Source of the DNA: Roseiflexaceae bacterium UBA965
GTDB lineage: Bacteria > Chloroflexota > Chloroflexia > Chloroflexales > Roseiflexaceae
Length of the DNA: 46,209 nucleotides
Assembly (NCBI GenBank): GCA_002292925.1
Contig: DBCF01000015.1
Span: 1 to 46,209, forward strand
Direction: 5' to 3'
Shown: positions 630-31,036 of the stretch, piece after piece
Layout of the letters: every line of letters starts with the position of its first letter
Numbering within the stretch: the stretch's first letter is position 1
The notes under the pieces: generated by a model
What the model was told of the DNA's origin: nothing
The model's input: the letters and a program-made list of their open reading frames with translations, nothing else
Databases searched by the model: none
Position numbers and translations under genes: made by a program

Positions 630-1120
630 TGTTTCTCCTTTACAATGATTACTATAGCTTGCTGTTCCGAGAATTAGTTTCCCCAAAATATCCCAAAATA
701 ACATTTATTATTCGAGATAAACAGTTATAATATTACACAAATTCAGATTTGTTATTTGTGTTAATTGTAAATATTATATAAATCTTGCATTTTTCAATAG
801 CAAGATTACATTCTAGAAATAATCATTTACCGGAATCGCCCAGCAACTATGAAATGCGGGCATAGCGGCGGCTCAATTATTTCGTGCATGACTACACGCT
901 TCCTCCTTCGCATACTGGTACTTAGTCATATCAATGCACCGCCACACAATCAACGAGCTGCCAAGATTAGCGTAGGTATTCTGTCTCATAAAAATAAAGC
1001 TGGTGCAATAAGAACAGTAACTGCAGAATCGTATAATGCCGTGTGATGATACGATTCCTGCGCGTCGTGGGTTTTTGTTGGTACAATTCTACTGAAATAC
1101 GAAATTTTAGGAGTTGTAAG

Positions 1121-6919: not shown

Positions 6920-7696
6920 ATGGACAGCGGTGTAGTTGTCGATTTTGCGCATCTAGGGGTCACCTACGCCAATGGCGTGGTGGCCCTTTCTGACCTTTCA
7001 TTGACCATTGCCGCCGATCAAGCGGTATGCGTGGTGGGTCCGAGTGGCTGCGGCAAAACGACCTTATTGCGGGTATTGGCGGGACTCGAACGTGCCACCC
7101 AGGGTGGTGTGCAGCTTTCGCGTCCGGCCACATTGGCCATGGTATTTCAGCAAGGCTTGCTCTTTCCGTGGTTGTCGGTGGCAGAAAATATCAGCTATGG
7201 GCTAATGACTCGGGGCGCAACCCCGCCCCAATGCCGAGCAGCGGCGCGCGAATGGAGCGAGCGGATGGGGTTGCAACGCTTTATTGATGCCTACCCCCAT
7301 CAATTATCGGGGGGGATGCAACAACGGGTGGGTTTGGCACGGGCACTCGCCGTCAACCCCGATGTATTGTTGCTCGACGAACCATTTGCAGCCCTCGATG
7401 CCCAGACCCGGGTATTGATGCAAGAATTACTGGTTGATTTGCGCCGCCAAGGGTTGTGTCGCAGTTTGTTGTTGGTGACCCATGCCATCGACGAAGCGTT
7501 GTTGGTCGGCGACAGGGTGGTGGTGCTGTCGGCGCGGCCGGGGCGGATTATTGCTGACGTGACGCCGCAGGTGGCCCACAGCCAGAGTTTCGACGAAATT
7601 CGGGCACAGCCGGCCTTTATGCAGGCTTTTACGACGATTTGGCAACTCATCCGCCACGAAGTCGAAGCGCAATTGCGTGAGGAGGTCATACTATGA
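6920..7696 (+). CDS. ABC transporter ATP-binding protein (NitT/TauT family)
   Basis: Walker A GPSGCGKTT, signature LSGGMQQRV, Walker B LLLDEPF. The stop overlaps the next start (ATGA), implying translational coupling. Confidence 0.9.
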   Translation: MDSGVVVDFAHLGVTYANGVVALSDLSLTIAADQAVCVVGPSGCGKTTLLRVLAGLERATQGGVQLSRPATLAMVFQQGLLFPWLSVAENISYGLMTRGATPPQCRAAAREWSERMGLQRFIDAYPHQLSGGMQQRVGLARALAVNPDVLLLDEPFAALDAQTRVLMQELLVDLRRQGLCRSLLLVTHAIDEALLVGDRVVVLSARPGRIIADVTPQVAHSQSFDEIRAQPAFMQAFTTIWQLIRHEVEAQLREEVIL

Positions 7697-9348
7697 CCCA
7701 AAGTCGTTGGTTGACCTGGCTTTCACCGCTGCTGTTGGTGGTGTTGTGGGAAGTAGCTGTACAACTCAACCTACTCAATCGCGTATTTATCCCTCCGCCC
7801 AGCGAAGTGGTGGTAGCGCTTGTCAAAGCCGTGCGCGATGGCAGCATGCAACACGATGTGGTGGTGAGTAGCCAACGGATTGTATTGGGGTTTGTGATTG
7901 GGGCGGTACCCGGTACCCTATTGGGGATTTGGAGTGGCCTCAATCGTACGGTACTAGCACTAGTGCGCCCGTTGGCGACGATGTTGTACCCCGTGCCAAA
8001 AATCGCCTTGTTGCCGTTGGTGATTGTGGTGTTGGGCATCGGCGAAGTGAGCAAAGTGGCCACGGTAGCGGTCAGTGTTTTTTTGATGGTGGTAATCCAT
8101 ACCATCGGCGGCGTCTTGCAAATCGACCAACGCTATTTCGAGGCGGCCCGGGTGTTTGGCGCCAATCAACGCACCATATTTCGTACCGTCGCCTTGCCCG
8201 CCAGCCTGCCAGCGATTGTCGAGGGCTGGAAGCTGGCGATGGGGTTTGCCTTGACGTTGATTGTCGGTGTGGAGTTTGTCGGTGCCAATGACGGCATCGG
8301 CTACCGCATCTGGCAATCGTACGAGTTGTATGCCATTGCTGACATGATGGCGGCGGTGTGTGTGATTGCCGGCTTGGGCTGGGTAGTGACGGTAGTACTC
8401 GATGAAGTGGCGCGGCTGCTGGTGCCGTGGCGTTATACAACAGTCAAGGAGTCGCGTATGTCGGTCGTACGAACCTGGTGGGGCGCAGTGCGCCCGTGGA
8501 GCTATACCGCCGCCATTGTGCCGGTATTGTTGGGGGCTGCCATTGCCGCCCAGCAAGTAGGATTGAATTGGTGGCTGTTGATCCTCGCCTTGATTGGCTC
8601 TATCGCCATCCAAGGCGGTACCAATCTGATGAATGACTACTATGATTACCGCAAAGGCACCGATACCCCCGCCGTCAAAGGCACGGGTGGAGCGTTGCTT
8701 CGGGGTGAACTCACCCCCACCCAGATTTTTTGGGCGGGGATTAGTGCTTTTGCCATCGGTGCCGCCATCGGTCTTTATTTGGTATCGGTGACGGGACCAT
8801 TTATTTTTTGGTTAGGGTTGTGTAGCGTGGCAGTGGGTTATTTTTATACGGCGGGACCCTTTGCCTTGGCGTATGTGGGTTTGGGCGAAATCGCCGTCTT
8901 TATTTTTATGGGGCCAGTAATGGTCCTCGGCTCGTATTTCTTGCAAATCCCCACGGTGGCGTGGCCGGCAGTGTGGGTATCGTTGCCGGTGGCCTTTGTG
9001 GTGGCAGCGATTTTGCACGCCAACAATTTGCGTGACATCGATACTGACCGTATCAACAATAAACGCACCTTGGCGACGATTTTTGGGCGTGATGGTGCCC
9101 GCATCGAGTACTACCTCTTGGTGGGTGGCACCTTTGTGAGCCAGTGGGTGCTCGTGGCGCTGGGCGTGGCGCCGTGGCCGACGTTGGTGACGTTGGTGAT
9201 GCTGCCCTTGGCGTGGAAGTTGATGGGGATTGCTGGTCGCGAAGTCGACCCCGCTGCCCTACAACCCGTGTTGCGCCAAACCGCCGTATTACACATGCGC
9301 TTCGGGTTGTTGTATGTGCTGGGCTGGGTAATTGCCTTGTGGATGTGA
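7693..9348 (+). CDS. menA: In-frame fusion of an ABC transporter permease (residues ~1-246) and 1,4-dihydroxy-2-naphthoate polyprenyltransferase MenA (UbiA family, residues ~256-551)
   Basis: N-terminal half has the BPD_transp_1 signature (EAARVFGANQRTIFRTVALPASLP). C-terminal half has MenA/UbiA motifs (NLMNDYYDYRKG, HANNLRDIDTDRINNKRTLA). I re-translated the junction 8401-8470 (DEVARLLVPWRYTTVKESRMSVVRTWW) and found no stop. An internal ATG at 8458 has AAGGAG 6 nt upstream. Confidence 0.8.
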   Translation: MTQSRWLTWLSPLLLVVLWEVAVQLNLLNRVFIPPPSEVVVALVKAVRDGSMQHDVVVSSQRIVLGFVIGAVPGTLLGIWSGLNRTVLALVRPLATMLYPVPKIALLPLVIVVLGIGEVSKVATVAVSVFLMVVIHTIGGVLQIDQRYFEAARVFGANQRTIFRTVALPASLPAIVEGWKLAMGFALTLIVGVEFVGANDGIGYRIWQSYELYAIADMMAAVCVIAGLGWVVTVVLDEVARLLVPWRYTTVKESRMSVVRTWWGAVRPWSYTAAIVPVLLGAAIAAQQVGLNWWLLILALIGSIAIQGGTNLMNDYYDYRKGTDTPAVKGTGGALLRGELTPTQIFWAGISAFAIGAAIGLYLVSVTGPFIFWLGLCSVAVGYFYTAGPFALAYVGLGEIAVFIFMGPVMVLGSYFLQIPTVAWPAVWVSLPVAFVVAAILHANNLRDIDTDRINNKRTLATIFGRDGARIEYYLLVGGTFVSQWVLVALGVAPWPTLVTLVMLPLAWKLMGIAGREVDPAALQPVLRQTAVLHMRFGLLYVLGWVIALWM

Positions 9349-9381: not shown

Positions 9382-10062
9382 ATGAAACAACAGCTCTTCA
9401 TTGCGGTGATCGTAATCATTTGTACGGCGTGTGGGCAGTCATCCGTACAAAACAATCCGCTGCCAACACCGGTAACGTTGACAAATACACCAGTCGAGAT
9501 TGATACACCACTTGTCACAAATACACCCGTTCCAATCTCTAATACGGTTGTGCCTGTGGCTCCAACACCACTGGTGGCAACTAGGGTTGTGGCGCCGACC
9601 GCGACATTGACGGCAACCAAAGTGGCAGCAATAACTACTAGCGGGTGGCGGTTTCGTAATAAAACACTGCCTGGTGCACAATTTGCTCATCAAGGGACAC
9701 ATTGTGCCAATGGCACAGACTTGAGTGGTGAGTGGGTAGTGACTGATGAAAAAACCATCGAGGGCGTGAAATTTACGTCACGGATTATTGTGACAGTGAA
9801 TGCGGATCAAACAAGTGGCGCATGGCGGATTGAACAGTTTTTTGTTATCGAAGGGGTGAAATCACTCGGTGGCGTACAAGGGAGTATTGCCCAAATCCGG
9901 TTGGGGAGCGATGGCGTGGTGGCGTTTGATTTGAATGTTGGCACGCCAGTCCAAGCCAAAATCATCCAACCCGATGGCAGCGAAACGCCGTTTGATTTCC
10001 CGATGCCGGTGACGAGTCTCAAACAACTGGAGTGGGAACCACTCACTGGGTCTTGTCCGTAA
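9382..10062 (+). CDS. Lipoprotein of unknown function with a T/P/V-rich linker
   Basis: MKQQLFIAVIVIICTACGQ signal with a lipobox-like Cys, about 70 residues of low-complexity TNTPV/PTP linker, then a ~130-residue beta-rich domain with two Cys. I recognise no family. Confidence 0.6.
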   Translation: MKQQLFIAVIVIICTACGQSSVQNNPLPTPVTLTNTPVEIDTPLVTNTPVPISNTVVPVAPTPLVATRVVAPTATLTATKVAAITTSGWRFRNKTLPGAQFAHQGTHCANGTDLSGEWVVTDEKTIEGVKFTSRIIVTVNADQTSGAWRIEQFFVIEGVKSLGGVQGSIAQIRLGSDGVVAFDLNVGTPVQAKIIQPDGSETPFDFPMPVTSLKQLEWEPLTGSCP

Positions 10063-10298: not shown

Positions 10299-11654
10299 AT
10301 GCGTGGGCGAATCATTGAATTAGCGTTCATTAGTCTGTTTTTGGTGGCATGTAGTGCCACACCATCGGCAAGTGTTGAGACCCCAAGTGTGCCAACCGTA
10401 ACCCAAAACACCGACACAACTACATCACAAGCGGCACCCGTTACTCCTGAGATTACTGAAGGTGCAACGGTAGTGACCGATGGAGCGACTCCAACCCAGT
10501 TTGTGCTGCCGACGTCAACCCCCAGCAATGCCGATGCCCCCGACGCCACCGCCTTGGCTGCCACCACGATTGCGTTGATGCCCGCTACTGCCACTCCCGA
10601 TGCGTCAGGATTGACCGCCTCACTCCAAGGTGATGTGGTGGTGGTGGCCCTTTCCAACGGCGCCGAGGGGCAGTTTTTTGCAACCATTAGCAAAGGCATG
10701 ATGGAAAACATTGATGACCCACATCCGTTGACTATCTACCAAAAAAACGGGGCTGAGTTTGTCAGTGTCACCCAGTATGACTTTACCAATGGCGAATATA
10801 TCGGCGATCTCGAGTTGTTGCCCATCCCCGACTCCAATCACATGTTATTTATTGTGCATGGTGGCGTGGGCGCGCATAGTAGTTTTGGCACGGTTTTTTC
10901 GTTTGATGGCAAAACCCTCAAATCAGAGCTCGAAACCCAATCTGATGCAGGCGGCGGGGCATTGACGGTAATGGATGTCAATGGTGACGGCGTGCAAGAT
11001 GTGATTGGTGATGCTACTGATTATTATGTGTTTTGTTATGCCTGTGGGGTGCGGATTAATTCCGATATCGTATATAGCTGGGATGGCGCCAAGTTTGTTG
11101 AGCAGACATTGACCGCCTCGAGTGATGCCACCATCCAAAAAGCGATTGATTATGCCAAAGCCCAACGCTGGAACATGGTCACCAAATCATTGCCCACCAT
11201 CAGCGCCCCAACCAACGATGCCGACAAATGGAATGTAGCGTTGTTGACGCACTGGTCGACGATTCGTATCCCCGAGACAGACGCAGCATTTCCTTTTTTG
11301 TCAGCAGTCTACTATGGTGATTATGATGCTGCCGTCGCTATGTTGCGTGCCGTCGGTGCCAAAGACGCTGCCAATCCCAAGGGCAAGTGGTTTGCGGGCC
11401 CAATTGCCGAAGGCATCGATGTAGCTACTGACACATCAATTGATGAGTTCCGTGTGATATTGTTTGATAATGTAGTACAATTTAGCACCATGGCATTGAC
11501 CCAAGATGACACAGTAACGAGTGCCCGCTTCTTACGTGGCTGGGCCAAAACACTCGTAAACCCCCGTGATCCTGAAGGATTAAAAGATTTGCAGGCAGTG
11601 GCGACTGCTGATCCGTTTTACGCCGCCGTGCGTGATGCGATTGTCAGTCGTTAG
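10299..11654 (+). CDS. Lipoprotein of unknown function (T/P/A-rich linker, FG-GAP/VCBS-like Asp-Gly motif)
   Basis: MRGRIIELAFISLFLVAC lipobox (LVAC), about 90 residues of linker, and MDVNGDGVQDVIGD calcium-binding-like motif. It ends 20 nt before glgB, whose RBS GAGGAG lies in the gap. Confidence 0.6.
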   Translation: MRGRIIELAFISLFLVACSATPSASVETPSVPTVTQNTDTTTSQAAPVTPEITEGATVVTDGATPTQFVLPTSTPSNADAPDATALAATTIALMPATATPDASGLTASLQGDVVVVALSNGAEGQFFATISKGMMENIDDPHPLTIYQKNGAEFVSVTQYDFTNGEYIGDLELLPIPDSNHMLFIVHGGVGAHSSFGTVFSFDGKTLKSELETQSDAGGGALTVMDVNGDGVQDVIGDATDYYVFCYACGVRINSDIVYSWDGAKFVEQTLTASSDATIQKAIDYAKAQRWNMVTKSLPTISAPTNDADKWNVALLTHWSTIRIPETDAAFPFLSAVYYGDYDAAVAMLRAVGAKDAANPKGKWFAGPIAEGIDVATDTSIDEFRVILFDNVVQFSTMALTQDDTVTSARFLRGWAKTLVNPRDPEGLKDLQAVATADPFYAAVRDAIVSR

Positions 11655-11674
11655 TTTGTTATTGAGGAGCATGT

Positions 11675-13579
11675 ATGCCGACACAATTGCACGGCCATAC
11701 CCTACTAAGTCAAGATGATCTCTACTTGTTCAATGAGGGTTCGCATTTTGCACTGCACGAAAAACTCGGCGCAATTTATTGTCAGCGTGACGGGGTTACG
11801 GGTGTGCATTTTGCGGTATGGGCACCAAGTGCCCGCGCCGTGCATGTGATTGGCGATTTCAATGGCTGGCAACGGGGCGTGACCACGTTGTACCCCCAAG
11901 GGGCATCTGGGCTATGGGCGAATTTCTTTGCCGATGTGCCGGTGGGGTGTTGTTATAAATACGCCATCGAAACACAATCGGGTGACTGGCTCGAAAAAGC
12001 CGACCCCTGTGCCGCAGCCGCCGAGTTTCGCCCCCAGACAGGCTCAGTTGTCACCGATTTGACCACCTATCAGTGGCACGATGAAGCCTGGATGCAATCA
12101 CGCCGTGGCTACGATGTCACCCACGCGCCAATGAGCATCTACGAGGTGCATTTGGGCTCGTGGATGCGCAACCCCGATGGTTCGTGGCTCGGCTATGCCG
12201 ATGCCGCCCGCAAATTGGCCGACTATTTGGTAGCGATGAACTACACCCACGTAGAATTGTTGCCGATCATGGAATTTCCCTACGATGGCTCGTGGGGCTA
12301 CCAGACCGTCGGTTTATATGCGCCCACCAGCCGTTTTGGCACACCCCACGACTTCATGGGGTTTGTCGATTACCTGCACCAAAAAGGTATCGGGATTATT
12401 CTCGACTGGGTGCCGTCGCATTTCGCTGTCGACGCTCATGGCCTAGCCCAATTTGATGGCACGCATTTGTATGAGCATTCTGACCCCCGGCAAGGCTATC
12501 ACCCTGACTGGGGCTGTTATATTTTTAATTATGGGCGTCACGAAGTCCGTAGCTTTTTGATTAGTAGTGCGATTTCTTGGATTGAGCGCTATCACATCGA
12601 CGGGCTGCGGGTCGATGCAGTGGCATCAATGCTCTATCTCGATTATTCCCGCAAGGCCGGCGAGTGGATTCCCAACGCCTATGGTGGTCGGGAAAATATC
12701 GACGCCATCGTGTTGTTGCGCCGCCTCAATGACCAAGTACGCCAACGCTACCCCGGGGTCACTATGATTGCCGAAGAATCGACGGCCTGGCCAATGGTGT
12801 CGCGACCAACCGATGTCGGCGGGTTGGGGTTTGCTATGAAGTGGGACATGGGCTGGATGCACGATACCTTGAAGTATCTGAGCAACGACCCTGTCCACCG
12901 CCGCTTCCACCACAACAATCTAACCTTCCGGTCGCTTTATTCGACCAGTGAGCAATTTACCTTGGCGTTATCACATGACGAGGTCGTGCACGGCAAAGGC
13001 GCCTTGCTGGCCAAAATGCCAGGTGATCGCTGGCAACAATTTGCCAATCTGCGAGCACTCTATGGCTACATGTATGCTCAGTCAGGCAAAAAACTGCTCT
13101 TTATGGGTGGCGAAATCGGCCAGTGGCGCGAATGGTCATACGAACGCGAGCTCGATTGGTTTGTGCTCGAAGACCCCATGCACCGTGGCATCAATGCCTT
13201 GGTACGTGATTTGAATCATTTGCATATTGTCGAGCCCGCCTTGCACCAGTTAGATTTTGATCCGTGGGGCTTCCATTGGATTGCCTGTGATGACGCCGAC
13301 CAGAGTGTAGTGATTGCCTTGCGCCGTGGGGGTGCCGGCGTGCGTAATGTGGCGGTGTGGTGCAACTTCACACCCGTCCCCCGCCACCATTACCGCATCG
13401 GTTTACCGCATGGTGGCGCCTGGCACGTGCTGCTCAATAGCGACGATAGCCAGTATGGCGGCAGTGGTATGCGCGCCGATATCAATGTCGAGTCGGTGCC
13501 GTGTCATGGCATGCCCTATTCGGCATTAGTCAATATGCCCCCCTTGGCTGTGGTGTTTATTGCACCAGTAGTAGAATAA
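11675..13579 (+). CDS. glgB: 1,4-alpha-glucan branching enzyme (GH13)
   Basis: Full-length GlgB architecture. GH13 conserved regions are present: GIGIILDWVPSHF, IDGLRVDAVASMLY, MIAEESTAWP, ALSHDEVVHGK. Confidence 0.95.
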   Translation: MPTQLHGHTLLSQDDLYLFNEGSHFALHEKLGAIYCQRDGVTGVHFAVWAPSARAVHVIGDFNGWQRGVTTLYPQGASGLWANFFADVPVGCCYKYAIETQSGDWLEKADPCAAAAEFRPQTGSVVTDLTTYQWHDEAWMQSRRGYDVTHAPMSIYEVHLGSWMRNPDGSWLGYADAARKLADYLVAMNYTHVELLPIMEFPYDGSWGYQTVGLYAPTSRFGTPHDFMGFVDYLHQKGIGIILDWVPSHFAVDAHGLAQFDGTHLYEHSDPRQGYHPDWGCYIFNYGRHEVRSFLISSAISWIERYHIDGLRVDAVASMLYLDYSRKAGEWIPNAYGGRENIDAIVLLRRLNDQVRQRYPGVTMIAEESTAWPMVSRPTDVGGLGFAMKWDMGWMHDTLKYLSNDPVHRRFHHNNLTFRSLYSTSEQFTLALSHDEVVHGKGALLAKMPGDRWQQFANLRALYGYMYAQSGKKLLFMGGEIGQWREWSYERELDWFVLEDPMHRGINALVRDLNHLHIVEPALHQLDFDPWGFHWIACDDADQSVVIALRRGGAGVRNVAVWCNFTPVPRHHYRIGLPHGGAWHVLLNSDDSQYGGSGMRADINVESVPCHGMPYSALVNMPPLAVVFIAPVVE

Positions 13580-27636: not shown

Positions 27637-29475
27637 CTAATCGTCGTTTTGCATGGCCATTTCGCGGCGTTTCTGGTCACGTTTGCGTTCTTCTTGGTTG
27701 AGCAAGCGTTTGCGCAAGCGATAGTTTTTTGGTGTTACTTCGAGCAATTCGTCGTCGCCGAGGTATTCGACGGCGTCGTCAAGGCTCAAATTCCGTGGGG
27801 TTTCGAGGCGCAATGAATCATCGGCACCCGACGAACGCATGTTGGTCAAATGCTTCTTTTTACAGCAATTGACTTCAAGGTCACGTTCACGGATGTGTTG
27901 TCCGATAATCATGCCTTCGTACACTTCATACCCTGCCGAAATGAAGAGTTGACCACGCTCTTGAGCACCAAACAGACCAAAGGTAGTGGTCATGCCTGAT
28001 TCTGAGGCGACGAGTGAACCCAAGGCTCGGGTGCTGATTTCGCCCATCATTGGTTGGTATTCGAGGAACAGCGCATTGAGCTGACCTTCACCGCGTGATG
28101 CCGTCATGAATTGTTGGCGGAAGCCCAACAACCCACGGGTTGGTACATGGAAGGTCAGATTGACGGTACCGTCTTCACGGTAGCTCATATCGCGCATTTG
28201 ACCACGGCGTTGACCGAGCAATTCGATGACAGTGCCTTGATATTGTTCAGACACTTCGATTTCGACTTGTTCGACTGGTTCCATCCGTTGACCATCAACC
28301 ATCTTGAAAATAACTTCGGGACGTGATACTTGGAATTCGTATCCTTCACGGCGCATATTTTCAATCAAAATGGTCAAGTGCAATTCACCACGGCCACTCA
28401 CCACAAAGGCATCTGGCACATCGGTGTCTTCGACACGCAACGCCACGTCGCGGTCTCGTTCGGTGTACAAACGATCACGCAACTTACGCGACGTGACATG
28501 AGTACCTTCACGGCCAGACAGTGGGCTGGTGTTAACCCCAAATGTCATCCGCACGGTTGGTTCTTCGACGGCGATGATTGGCAGCTGTTCGGCACCAAGC
28601 ACATCGGCAATCGTGTCACCAATCATGCCATCAGCAATACCGGAGACGGCCATGATTTCGCCAGCTTGGACTTCTTCGACTTCGGTGCGATTAAGCCCGT
28701 TGTAGACGAAGAGTTGAATGATTTTGGAATTAGTTTGCGTACCGTCGTGAGCAAATCGGATAACTTGCTGAGCCTTGCGTAATGTGCCACGGCGCAAGCG
28801 ACCCATCATAATTTTGCCACGATAGTCATCATAAAACGTATTGGTGACCAACATCTGTGCCGACGCTTCGTTATCGACATCAGGTGCTGGGATGGTTTCG
28901 ACAATGGCATCAAACAACGGCTCGAGTGTCTCGGCCAAATTGTTGAAGTCCGTACCCGAAATGCCGTTGATGGCACTGGCAAAAATCACCGGGAAATCGG
29001 CTTGGTCATCGCTGGCACCTAATTCAACGAACAAATCAAATGTTTCGTTGACCACCCATTCGGGGCGGGCATTGGGGCGGTCGATTTTGTTGACCACAAC
29101 GATGGCTTTGTGGCCGGCAAGCAAAGCCTTGCGCAACACAAAGCGGGTTTGGGGCATCGGACCATCGACAGCATCAACCAACAACAACACGCCGTCCACC
29201 ATATTCATAACCCGTTCGACTTCGCCACCGAAGTCTGCGTGGCCTGGAGTGTCAACAATGTTGATCTTGGTACCCTTGTACACCACCGCCGTATTTTTGG
29301 CCATGATGGTGATACCACGCTCACGCTCGAGATCGTTCGAGTCCATGACCCGCTCACTGACCTGTTGGTTTTCGCGGAATGTACGTGATTGACGGAGTAG
29401 GCCATCGACAAGGGTGGTTTTGCCATGGTCTACGTGCGCAATGATTGCAATATTGCGCAAATCGGATCGCTTCAT
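27637..29475 (-). CDS. typA: Translational GTPase TypA/BipA
   Basis: [31 protein letters not shown] and NKID, plus the BipA C-terminal domain. Start moved to ATG 29475 (GGAGAAATC upstream). Confidence 0.95.
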
Positions 29476-29700
29476 GATTTCTCCATAGGTAACATACCAA
29501 ACGCCTCGACCAATGGTCGGGGCGCATCGATGCAACACACAACTATGTATAGTGTACCACGTTTTGTGTGATTACAATACCTACGCCAAAATCCCTCACC
29601 CTGCGTCATTCCATGCCGGTTGCCAGCGCAACCGTCGCGTGGAATCTCCCAAGGCTTGCCATTGGAGCAACAGTGGTTGGCAGCGGTACGCAGTTTTCCT

Positions 29701-29834
29701 TTTGATTCATCCACATAGTCCACGGGTTATACACCGTAACCCCTCTCCCATCGTCATTGGATCGGCAGTAGTTGGCATAAGTATTGGAACTACCAATAGA
29801 TTTGATTCATCCACATAGTCCACGGGTTATGCAC
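29701..29834 (+). repeat. Two copies of a 30-bp perfect direct repeat (34 bp with one mismatch), 100 bp apart, each carrying DnaA-box-like 9-mers
   Basis: tttgattcatccacatagtccacgggttat occurs at 29701-29730 and 29801-29830. The upstream flanks are also degenerately similar: cattggagcaacagtggttggcagcggtac versus cattggatcggcagtagttggcataagtat, about 22/30 by hand alignment. Confidence 0.85.
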
Positions 29835-29952
29835 ATTTGTAATGACACTTTTCATTTTTAGAAAAAAGAAGTATCACTAATCAACTTTTTTGGAATGACT
29901 TTTGATTACGCTGTATGGATATATAAGATAAATCATTAATTTATATAAGAAA
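29835..29952. other. A+T-rich stretch, candidate DNA unwinding element
   Basis: My hand count gives 26 G/C in 118 nt (about 78% A+T) in a window that is otherwise roughly 50% G+C. DnaA-box clusters flank it on both sides. Confidence 0.5.
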
Positions 29953-30269
29953 CCGTCGTAACACTAGGGATTGTGGATATGTGGATACGTGGGGTTTTGA
30001 GTGATACCAATCAATAATGTAGTCGTGGATAAGTCGTGGATGGTTATCCACAGGTCGTACACGGCAAATAGCAAGCGCAAAAATCATCAACAAATAATAC
30101 ACCGACGTACACCGCTTATCCACAACGTTCTCCACATTTCCTGTGGATAAGCCAAAAAGGCTGAAAAAGTATCCACCTGCTATCCCACAACTCTCCACGA
30201 GTTATCCACCACTTATACACGGCATTAGTGTCAATAAAAACCAGCCAAATCATGGGCAAATAAACGCAC

Positions 30270-30308
30270 AAAAACAACCGCCGTACCATTTATTTGGTAC
30301 GGCGGTTG
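30270..30308 (-). terminator. Rho-independent terminator of the bifunctional-nuclease-family gene
   Basis: On the minus strand: caaccgccgtacca-aataa-tggtacggcggttg followed by TTTTT. It lies 22 nt downstream of the stop at 30330. Confidence 0.8.
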
Positions 30309-30329
30309 TTTCTGGTTGGCAAAGCCACG

Positions 30330-30902
30330 TTATTCAGGGGTGTTTTTTTTGTTGTCGTCTTCGTTATCGAGGGAGTTAATAAAATCACGAAAGAGTGATA
30401 AGGTATCATCGCCGCCCGAGGTCTCATTTGCGGTGGAAGGAGCTTCGTCACGTGATGTATTACCCGGAGAACGAAACAACGGTGTATCTTGTTGTTCATC
30501 GGTATCAAATGGGACACTTGCCTGATCAAACACATGAGGCGCCACAAAAATCGGCACGTTGGCGCGGATTGCAAGGGCAATTGCATCACTCGAGCGGGCG
30601 TCGATTTCGATAGGTCCAGTTGCAGTGGTTGCAACGATGCGTGCAAAAAAAGTCGTGTCTTGGATGTCATTGATAATGACATGCTCGATTTGCGCGTTGA
30701 GTTCATGAAATAACGTATTGAGTAAATCATGCGTCATTGGTCGACTCGGCGTTAAGCTTTGCAATACAAACGAAATTGCGTCTGCTTCGAATTGACCAAT
30801 CCAAATTGGCAAATAGCGCCGACTATCAGATTCACGCAACACGACCACACGATTTTGCGTGAGCAAACTTACCCGCACACTATCGACAGTGACTCGTATC
30901 AT
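30330..30902 (-). CDS. Bifunctional nuclease (BFN/DUF151) family protein with an acidic disordered C-terminal tail
   Basis: VVVLRESDSRRYLPIWIGQFEADAI and RPMTHDLL are conserved BFN-domain blocks. Start moved to ATG 30902 (AAAGGAAG upstream). Confidence 0.8.
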   Translation of the reverse strand: MIRVTVDSVRVSLLTQNRVVVLRESDSRRYLPIWIGQFEADAISFVLQSLTPSRPMTHDLLNTLFHELNAQIEHVIINDIQDTTFFARIVATTATGPIEIDARSSDAIALAIRANVPIFVAPHVFDQASVPFDTDEQQDTPLFRSPGNTSRDEAPSTANETSGGDDTLSLFRDFINSLDNEDDNKKNTPE

Positions 30903-31036
30903 CGCGCTTCCTTTCATTCATTGCATAAACGTTAATACTTATATAATACACGTGTTTTGATATTGGTGGGGAATAGTCTTTCATTGTGGCGAGAACCATG
31001 GGCGTTATCTCGATATATTGTAGTTGGCTGAGATAG

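Follow-up and report, generated by a model that had tools for sequence, protein, structure and literature searches.

A DnaA-box module beside a BFN-domain gene as the probable chromosomal origin of an uncultured freshwater Roseiflexaceae-type bacterium

Where does an uncultured freshwater bacterium of the Roseiflexaceae start to replicate its chromosome, and can the site be one with no dnaA gene beside it? The question is raised by a contig of Roseiflexaceae bacterium UBA965 (DBCF01000015.1, assembly GCA_002292925.1), which was analyzed over its 46,209 nt and is here called the window. Between typA, encoding the translational GTPase TypA/BipA, and a gene with a BFN ('bifunctional nuclease') domain lies an intergenic gap of 854 nt (29476-30329). 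A previous reading made without database searches (the sequence-only reading) had pointed to this interval as the longest non-coding stretch, which it is, with the runner-up at 418 nt, and had proposed that it holds a chromosomal origin of replication (oriC). Our results support this proposal. The block is in all probability the DnaA-dependent oriC of this Roseiflexaceae-type Chloroflexia bacterium, as judged from dense and conserved DnaA boxes, a conserved unwinding core, boxes that bracket an AT-rich tract, linkage to parAB in sister genera, and a reversal of strand skew. The sequence-only reading thereby gains a conserved element of tandem boxes, spacer and trios, orthology across the family, the parA-parB neighborhood of sister genera and a skew switch. 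The architecture of the block, its conservation, its synteny and the local skew switch are direct observations.

The DnaA-box consensus TTATCCACA was scanned on both strands of the whole window. Three boxes are perfect, at 30044-30052 and 30116-30124 on the plus strand and at 30142-30150 on the minus strand, and exactly eight have one mismatch (29707, 29807, 29827, 30128 and 30202 on the plus strand; 29972, 29980 and 30024 on the minus strand). With two-mismatch boxes included, the locus holds approximately 18 boxes on both strands. These results agree with the sequence-only reading, which had listed the same three perfect boxes, at least eight with 8/9 matches and several with 7/9 on both strands. 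As many as 11 of the 16 boxes with at most one mismatch fall inside 520 nt, where 0.18 are expected (Poisson p = 1.4e-16). The total of 16 is ordinary (11.8 ± 3.0 in shuffles), and the signal is therefore the clustering and not the number of boxes. It had been suggested that equally dense clusters elsewhere would speak against an origin; in approximately 1.1 Mb of related Chloroflexia loci, at least 4 boxes per 600 nt were found at the orthologous site alone.

The boxes form two groups around the AT-rich tract, as described in the sequence-only reading (Table 1). On the typA side, they are arranged in two 34-nt direct repeats (29701-29734 and 29801-29834) with starts 100 nt apart, each made of three head-to-tail box-like 9-mers, i.e., TCATCCACA, TAGTCCACG and either TTATaCACc or TTATgCACA. 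This array is duplicated in the window and in its metagenome-assembled genome (MAG) counterpart (GCA_003670795.1, two contigs with 99.98% identity to the window), and is single in the 94-96% identical strains L003 and L004 and in L015. A single copy is likewise seen in strain contig L002, although the sequence there is broken by an apparent run of N. The duplication is a strain-level length polymorphism within the putative origin and probably arose by recombination between the repeats. Sub-arrangements of the larger, BFN-side group are seen again in relatives.

The tract between the two groups includes a 100-nt stretch (29849-29948) of 21% G+C, the second lowest value in the 46 kb. The tract follows the tandem boxes and trios described below directly on their 3' side, and relatives have an AT-rich or T-rich tract at the equivalent position. 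The most AT-rich 100 nt of the window (695-794, 17% G+C) are found in its second longest gap (625-1042) and contain no DnaA boxes.

Beside the AT-rich tract is a sequence that resembles the basal unwinding system (BUS) of bacterial origins. On the minus strand it reads GTATCCACA (29988-29980), TATCCACA (29979-29972), the spacer ATCC, and the trios CTA GTG TTA (29967-29959), and continues as CGA CGG TTT CTT ATA TAA ATT. The first trio lies 12 nt from the first box, a distance also found in Bacillus subtilis. If a BUS is taken to need one or more DnaA boxes, three or more DnaA-trios and a spacer not longer than 16 nt, the core of the window is a minimal case, with 3 trios and a spacer of 12.

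A TypA search of species-representative genomes yielded 80 loci, numbered with the prefix L. The box cluster was found upstream of typA in ten loci (L005-L009, L011, L015, L068 and the strain contigs L001 and L002) and at none of the other Chloroflexia loci, and its presence matches exactly the location of the BFN gene upstream of typA. Two of the cluster-bearing genomes, L008 and L011, with 69-70% G+C, have three perfect boxes spaced 20-21 nt apart. The tandem pair, the spacer and the CTA are kept in all cluster-bearing typA loci except L007, where the homologous core is a single perfect box followed by a 14-nt spacer. In an alignment of nine loci, L007 included, TATCCACA does not vary and the TA of the CTA after it hardly does. 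A BUS scan ranked this core as the best match of the whole locus in L005, L006, L007, L009, L068 and L011, with 8, 7, 7, 8, 8 and 4 trios, respectively. Two of the MAG records that carry this Chloroflexia locus (L009 and L068) are titled 'uncultured Klebsiella sp.'; their TypA is 89-90% identical to that of the window and the synteny is the same, and the labels look wrong.

The conservation extends beyond the typA loci. In 15/15 lineages or strains with the module whose sequence covers this flank, the BFN gene is immediately upstream of the module. The order parB-parA-(M23 peptidase)-BFN was found in a Roseiflexus-like MAG (L093/L094), in L095 (a 1.8-Mb contig), in Kouleothrix sp. (L096, a 5.64-Mb contig, JADKGW010000001.1, with the module at about 5.037 Mb) and in a metagenome contig (L165). 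In these parAB-linked loci, a terminator comes after BFN, then three tandem boxes and a tandem pair with CTA CTA, and finally a tract rich in AT or in T. The three perfect boxes of Kouleothrix are the sole boxes with at most one mismatch in 20.5 kb at 63% G+C, and its BFN gene is likewise trailed by a G+C-rich hairpin. The gene downstream of the module varies, and is typA in the clade of the window, a response regulator in L093, a P22_AR_N protein in L095 and an IS66-family transposase in Kouleothrix. This transposase (11028-12458) begins approximately 150 nt past the tandem pair (10873-10888) and trio core, which shows that the downstream flank of the presumed origin is a rearrangement hot spot.

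The M23-BFN adjacency ties the parAB-linked loci to the clade of the window, and the BFN-module-typA order ties this clade to L008 and L011. Because of these shared adjacencies, we regard the module as orthologous across the Roseiflexaceae and anchored by BFN. We take the ancestral context to be parB-parA-(M23)-BFN-oriC, with parAB as an operon that is classically found near origins, and typA to have become the downstream neighbor only in the clade of the window and one sister clade. BFN is the sole neighbor of the module that is conserved throughout the Roseiflexaceae, always with a terminator facing the boxes, and a functional tie between BFN and replication is conceivable. Three tandem boxes at 20-22-nt spacing were also tried as a marker of the module in a metagenome scan. 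This pattern proved generic, as 12/80 loci carried dnaA and 1/80 carried BFN, and the marker was dropped; its sole gain was the BFN-parAB locus L165.

Strand skew was evaluated locally, at the module loci and in the window, and on this scale it reverses at the module. The cumulative GC skew of the window has a local minimum at 29-31 kb, and a gene-level regression that separated the coding-strand effect from the side effect placed the best orientation-corrected breakpoint at 28-30 kb, with a modest effect (residual sum of squares down 14-18%). Pooled minus-strand genes of the window and an 8-kb extension have a skew of -0.092 to the left of the module, against +0.054 and +0.064 to its right. 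In 11/11 module loci the BFN side has a negative raw skew, and in 11/11 the other side has a higher one. Controls were 23 Chloroflexia loci that lack the module, and at the corresponding position their skew difference is 0.014 ± 0.020. A right-minus-left difference of at least 0.05 was found in 9/11 module loci vs. 1/23 controls (Fisher p = 1e-5), and an orientation-corrected side effect of at least 0.02 in 9/11 vs. 2/23, although the module loci are phylogenetically related and hence not independent in this comparison. The polarity fits G-rich leading strands that diverge from the module.

The absence of dnaA and dnaN from this neighborhood had been noted in the sequence-only reading and holds for the window as well as for 8.4 kb further right. 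Neither gene was found in a family scan of all sizeable open reading frames (ORFs) of the window, and the DnaA domain-IV signature is absent from its six reading frames. The window and 84 loci contain no credible match to the motif RDH[ST]T[VI], in a motif search only and not a search for DnaA homologs. Overall, neither dnaA nor dnaN was found within -30 kb or +25 kb of the module. None of dnaA, dnaN, rpmH, gidAB and parAB is present in the window or 8 kb beyond it, whereas parA-parB flank the orthologous module in L093, L095, L096 and L165. Linkage to dnaA, dnaN, rpmH, gidAB or parAB is common for an oriC but not obligatory, and origins separated from dnaA are known in Escherichia coli, Caulobacter and cyanobacteria. 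The claim that a dnaA-unlinked origin would be unusual for this kind of organism is overstated, as the module occurs family-wide, may well correspond to the oriC predicted by DoriC in Roseiflexus genomes, and separated origins are known elsewhere.

The closest parallel to the core is found in B. subtilis. Its BUS at incC reads, on the box strand, TTATCCACA-AATCCACA-GGCC-CTA CTA TTA... followed by AT-rich DNA (Pelliciari et al. 2021, PMC8287927). The window shares with it the head-to-tail pair of a 9-mer and an 8-mer xATCCACA, a G+C-rich spacer of 4 nt, a trio series opening with CTA (3'-GAT-5' on the bound strand), and the AT-rich tract thereafter. The two differ in that the module of the window is not located between dnaA and dnaN and has further box arrays beyond the AT-rich tract; in addition, B. 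subtilis has 6-9 trios, while the window has 3 in a broken array and its relatives have 7-8. The oriC of E. coli (gidA/mnmG-oriC-mioC) resembles the window in being apart from dnaA, in having one flanking gene directed outward and one inward, and in a DNA-unwinding element that borders a box-rich DnaA assembly region on one side. However, its flanking genes are others, its layout is of the R1-IHF-R5M type and not of the tandem-pair and trio type, and no GATC/SeqA or 13-mer system is visible in the window. The bipartite origin of Helicobacter pylori (oriC1/oriC2) likewise has boxes to either side of its unwinding region, as well as a BUS, but its halves are parted by the dnaA gene and not, as here, by a 118-nt AT-rich tract only.

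For cultured Chloroflexia, the oriC predictions derived from DoriC are at 112-140 in Roseiflexus sp. RS-1, 5723277..6 in R. castenholzii, 18-38 in Chloroflexus aggregans and 6346006 in Herpetosiphon; all four lie at the beginning or the end of the genome sequence and have weak BUS scores of 4-5 (PMC8287927). Roseiflexus belongs to the same family as the window, and its short strings, an inverted box pair TTATCCACA-AAAT-TGTGGATAA and GTCCAGAG-TTATCCACG, are found again as submotifs of the module in the relatives of the window. The alignment scores of the two strings against the module submotifs are 18 and 15 compared to a shuffle maximum of 13, for strings of only 27-28 nt and with all compared sequences being rich in DnaA boxes. 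This is suggestive only, but the Roseiflexus predictions may represent the same locus as the module. The Roseiflexus genomes may carry dnaA beside the module where the window has typA. The complete Roseiflexus genomes were not among the best 120 BFN homology matches.

Several observations weigh against an origin at this site. The lenient published BUS pattern matches 38 times in the window, and a core with three trios is not above chance. Since the generic pattern is this permissive, the BUS argument is based on conservation and on how the match ranks in relatives. Moreover, the strain group of the window has CGA CGG (29953-29958, minus strand) where its relatives have CTA CTG, i.e., G replaces the conserved central T in two trios, and an array of 7-8 is cut to 3. 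The array of the window is the degraded form of a good one. The skew data also contain exceptions. To the left of the module, plus-strand genes retain a pooled skew of +0.033, L008 and L011 are nearly without a skew switch, and positions 1-12 kb of the window are G-rich on the plus strand (skew +0.04 to +0.17) where C-richness is expected. The latter block may be a recent inversion or acquisition, or it may mark the limit of the skew argument. All genes at 47-54 kb are head-on to the rightward fork. The gene layout put forward in the sequence-only reading is as it described, but as an argument for divergent forks it is weak, given the head-on genes and the G-rich block; with co-directional counts mixed, we set gene-orientation bias aside. 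No parS consensus sites were found in the window, which is uninformative. Finally, the dnaA of this lineage was not located in the window or the 84 loci, and a second, dnaA-linked cluster could be the real origin.

The last point leads to the most serious rival, namely that the module is a secondary DnaA-box cluster, either a relic or auxiliary one of the oriCII type or one of the B. subtilis type, which regulates typA, BFN or parAB or buffers DnaA while the active oriC lies beside dnaA elsewhere. It would account for the lack of dnaA from -30 kb to +25 kb, for the degraded trios of this strain and for the left arrays being only 225-360 nt upstream of typA. It would also suit the strings that place the oriC of cultured Chloroflexia near coordinate 0, as well as Chloroflexus aurantiacus, in which dnaA is gene 0001. 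Pseudomonas aeruginosa offers a precedent, since its oriCII is a cluster of boxes upstream of gidAB-parAB with a role in transcription (PMC13438810). The likeness is real in that the box cluster is parAB-linked, here in the sister genera, and adjoins promoters. However, oriCII is situated a few kb away from the genuine oriC beside dnaA and exerts its effect on transcription, whereas no dnaA was found within tens of kb of the module and the skew switches at the module itself. Such a sign change across lineages with differing flanks, rare in controls, is unexpected if the origin is tens of kb or further away. Pure regulation or titration would also require neither a conserved element of tandem boxes, spacer and trios nor an adjoining AT-rich tract. 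The module persists while its downstream gene changes between typA, a response regulator, P22_AR_N and IS66, which speaks against a role at one specific promoter. The boxes are not conserved with a single regulated gene, as would be expected of a DnaA-regulated promoter, although a regulatory side role is possible. Collectively, we consider a secondary cluster unlikely.

Two further explanations appear weaker still. A dense cluster of DnaA boxes in a non-coding block away from dnaA could be a datA-like locus for DnaA-ATP hydrolysis or titration, or a DARS-like locus that reactivates DnaA, as the sequence-only reading had put forward for comparison with an origin. Loci of these kinds have about 3-5 essential boxes and IHF/Fis sites, are without an unwinding element or trio array and do not lie at a skew reversal; to our knowledge, they have been characterized in Enterobacteria only. 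With its approximately 18 boxes, BUS-like core, AT-rich tract resembling an unwinding element and skew switch, the module differs from them, and a datA or DARS function, which fits worse than a secondary cluster, is very improbable. Likewise, the two direct 34-nt repeats 100 nt apart might be taken for iterons next to DnaA boxes, and the transposase that adjoins the module in Kouleothrix for a trace of mobility, as in an integrated or secondary replicon (plasmid, chromid or mobile element). The repeats are, however, DnaA-box arrays that are single-copy in sister strains, the family assignments of the window ORFs include none for rep, partition or mobility functions, housekeeping genes make up the flanks (typA, purA, murJ, dcd, rodZ and a miaB-like gene), and the module is vertically conserved with chromosomal synteny. 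We therefore exclude a plasmid or iteron origin on gene content and chromosomal synteny, and give the whole class of explanations hardly any credence.

For an oriC at this locus, a mechanism can be proposed by analogy with B. subtilis and E. coli, from which DnaA binding, unwinding and origin firing at the module are inferred. DnaA would bind the strong boxes of the BFN-side cluster, and the tandem pair GTATCCACA-TATCCACA on the minus strand would nucleate an ATP-DnaA filament. The filament would then cross the 4-nt spacer onto the trio strand (CTA GTG TTA...) and melt the adjoining tract of 23% G+C, while the remaining boxes would assemble a higher-order complex. The typA-side arrays, which bracket the presumed unwinding element, would probably stabilize the open complex or load a second filament. 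In this model the BFN transcript would end just short of the cluster and typA would be transcribed outward, a geometry as in mioC-oriC-gidA of E. coli. A more far-reaching version, which we regard as speculative and rather doubtful, is that the Roseiflexaceae origin is a self-contained BFN-anchored module uncoupled from dnaA, that the BFN protein is an origin-associated factor, that some Chloroflexia oriC predictions which default to dnaA are mislocated, and that the strain of the window compensates its weakened unwinding element by the duplicated far-side array.

An origin assignment for this abundant, uncultured freshwater Chloroflexia lineage would aid the rotation and orientation of MAGs, growth rates from peak-to-trough ratios of read depth and analyses of replichores. 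In the Roseiflexaceae, the BFN gene, and ancestrally parAB, would be a better guide to the origin than dnaA. The module would also add a phylum-level example of a conserved unwinding element of tandem boxes and DnaA-trios, where the published Chloroflexia predictions have BUS scores of 4-5 only. What is new is thus a family-wide, BFN-anchored origin module together with a canonical BUS in Chloroflexia. The added value is modest, as no new mechanism is revealed and an origin separated from dnaA is an already known arrangement.

Table 1. Position and character of the features in and around the typA-BFN gap of the window.
Feature	Coordinates	Strand	Characteristics
Left (typA-side) DnaA-box arrays	29701..29834	+	repeat family D2, 97% identity
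AT-rich tract, presumed DNA-unwinding element	29836..29953	.	118 nt, 22.9% G+C
BUS-like core	29959..29988	-	tandem boxes, spacer, trios
Right (BFN-side) DnaA-box cluster, presumed DnaA assembly region	29972..30221	.	3 perfect, 5 one-mismatch, several two-mismatch boxes
typA (translational GTPase TypA/BipA)	27637..29475	-	TIGR01394, 911 bits vs. cutoff 757
typA leader and presumed promoter region	29476..29700	-	between box arrays and typA start; role inferred
BFN-domain ('bifunctional nuclease') gene	30330..30917	-	PF02577, 138 bits
BFN-gene intrinsic terminator	30269..30314	-	20-bp stem, 6-nt loop, T-rich tail

The ATG of typA at 29475 gives a 612-aa product, as called on public contigs, and its transcription points away from the box module. 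The TypA of the window is nearest to that of lake MAGs labeled Chloroflexi, Chloroflexia or Roseiflexaceae. In the typA leader there are no DnaA boxes with at most one mismatch, and no match to a consensus sigma-70 promoter for typA was found there. On the other side, the predicted BFN terminator should halt transcription running toward the box cluster. ORFs within the gap have no Pfam match, and an Rfam scan of the gap gave nothing at gathering thresholds, only hairpin-driven noise (E = 0.3-0.9) at the BFN terminator.

Elsewhere in the window, a class-V aminotransferase gene (1043-2272) contains 49 nt (1602-1650) that are missing from the otherwise 99.9-99.99% identical MAG contig QWQO01000021.1. 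The MAG calls no gene at this site, and the difference is either a frameshifting indel or an assembly difference. A single 551-aa ORF at 7693-9348, preceded by an NMT1-type binding protein and an ABC ATPase, fuses an ABC-transporter permease domain (BPD_transp_1) with a UbiA prenyltransferase domain, which is unusual. Two adjacent ORFs (9382-10062, 226 aa; 10299-11654, 451 aa) have no Pfam or NCBIfam family apart from a sub-threshold FG-GAP repeat match, and identical proteins are called on the near-identical MAG contig.

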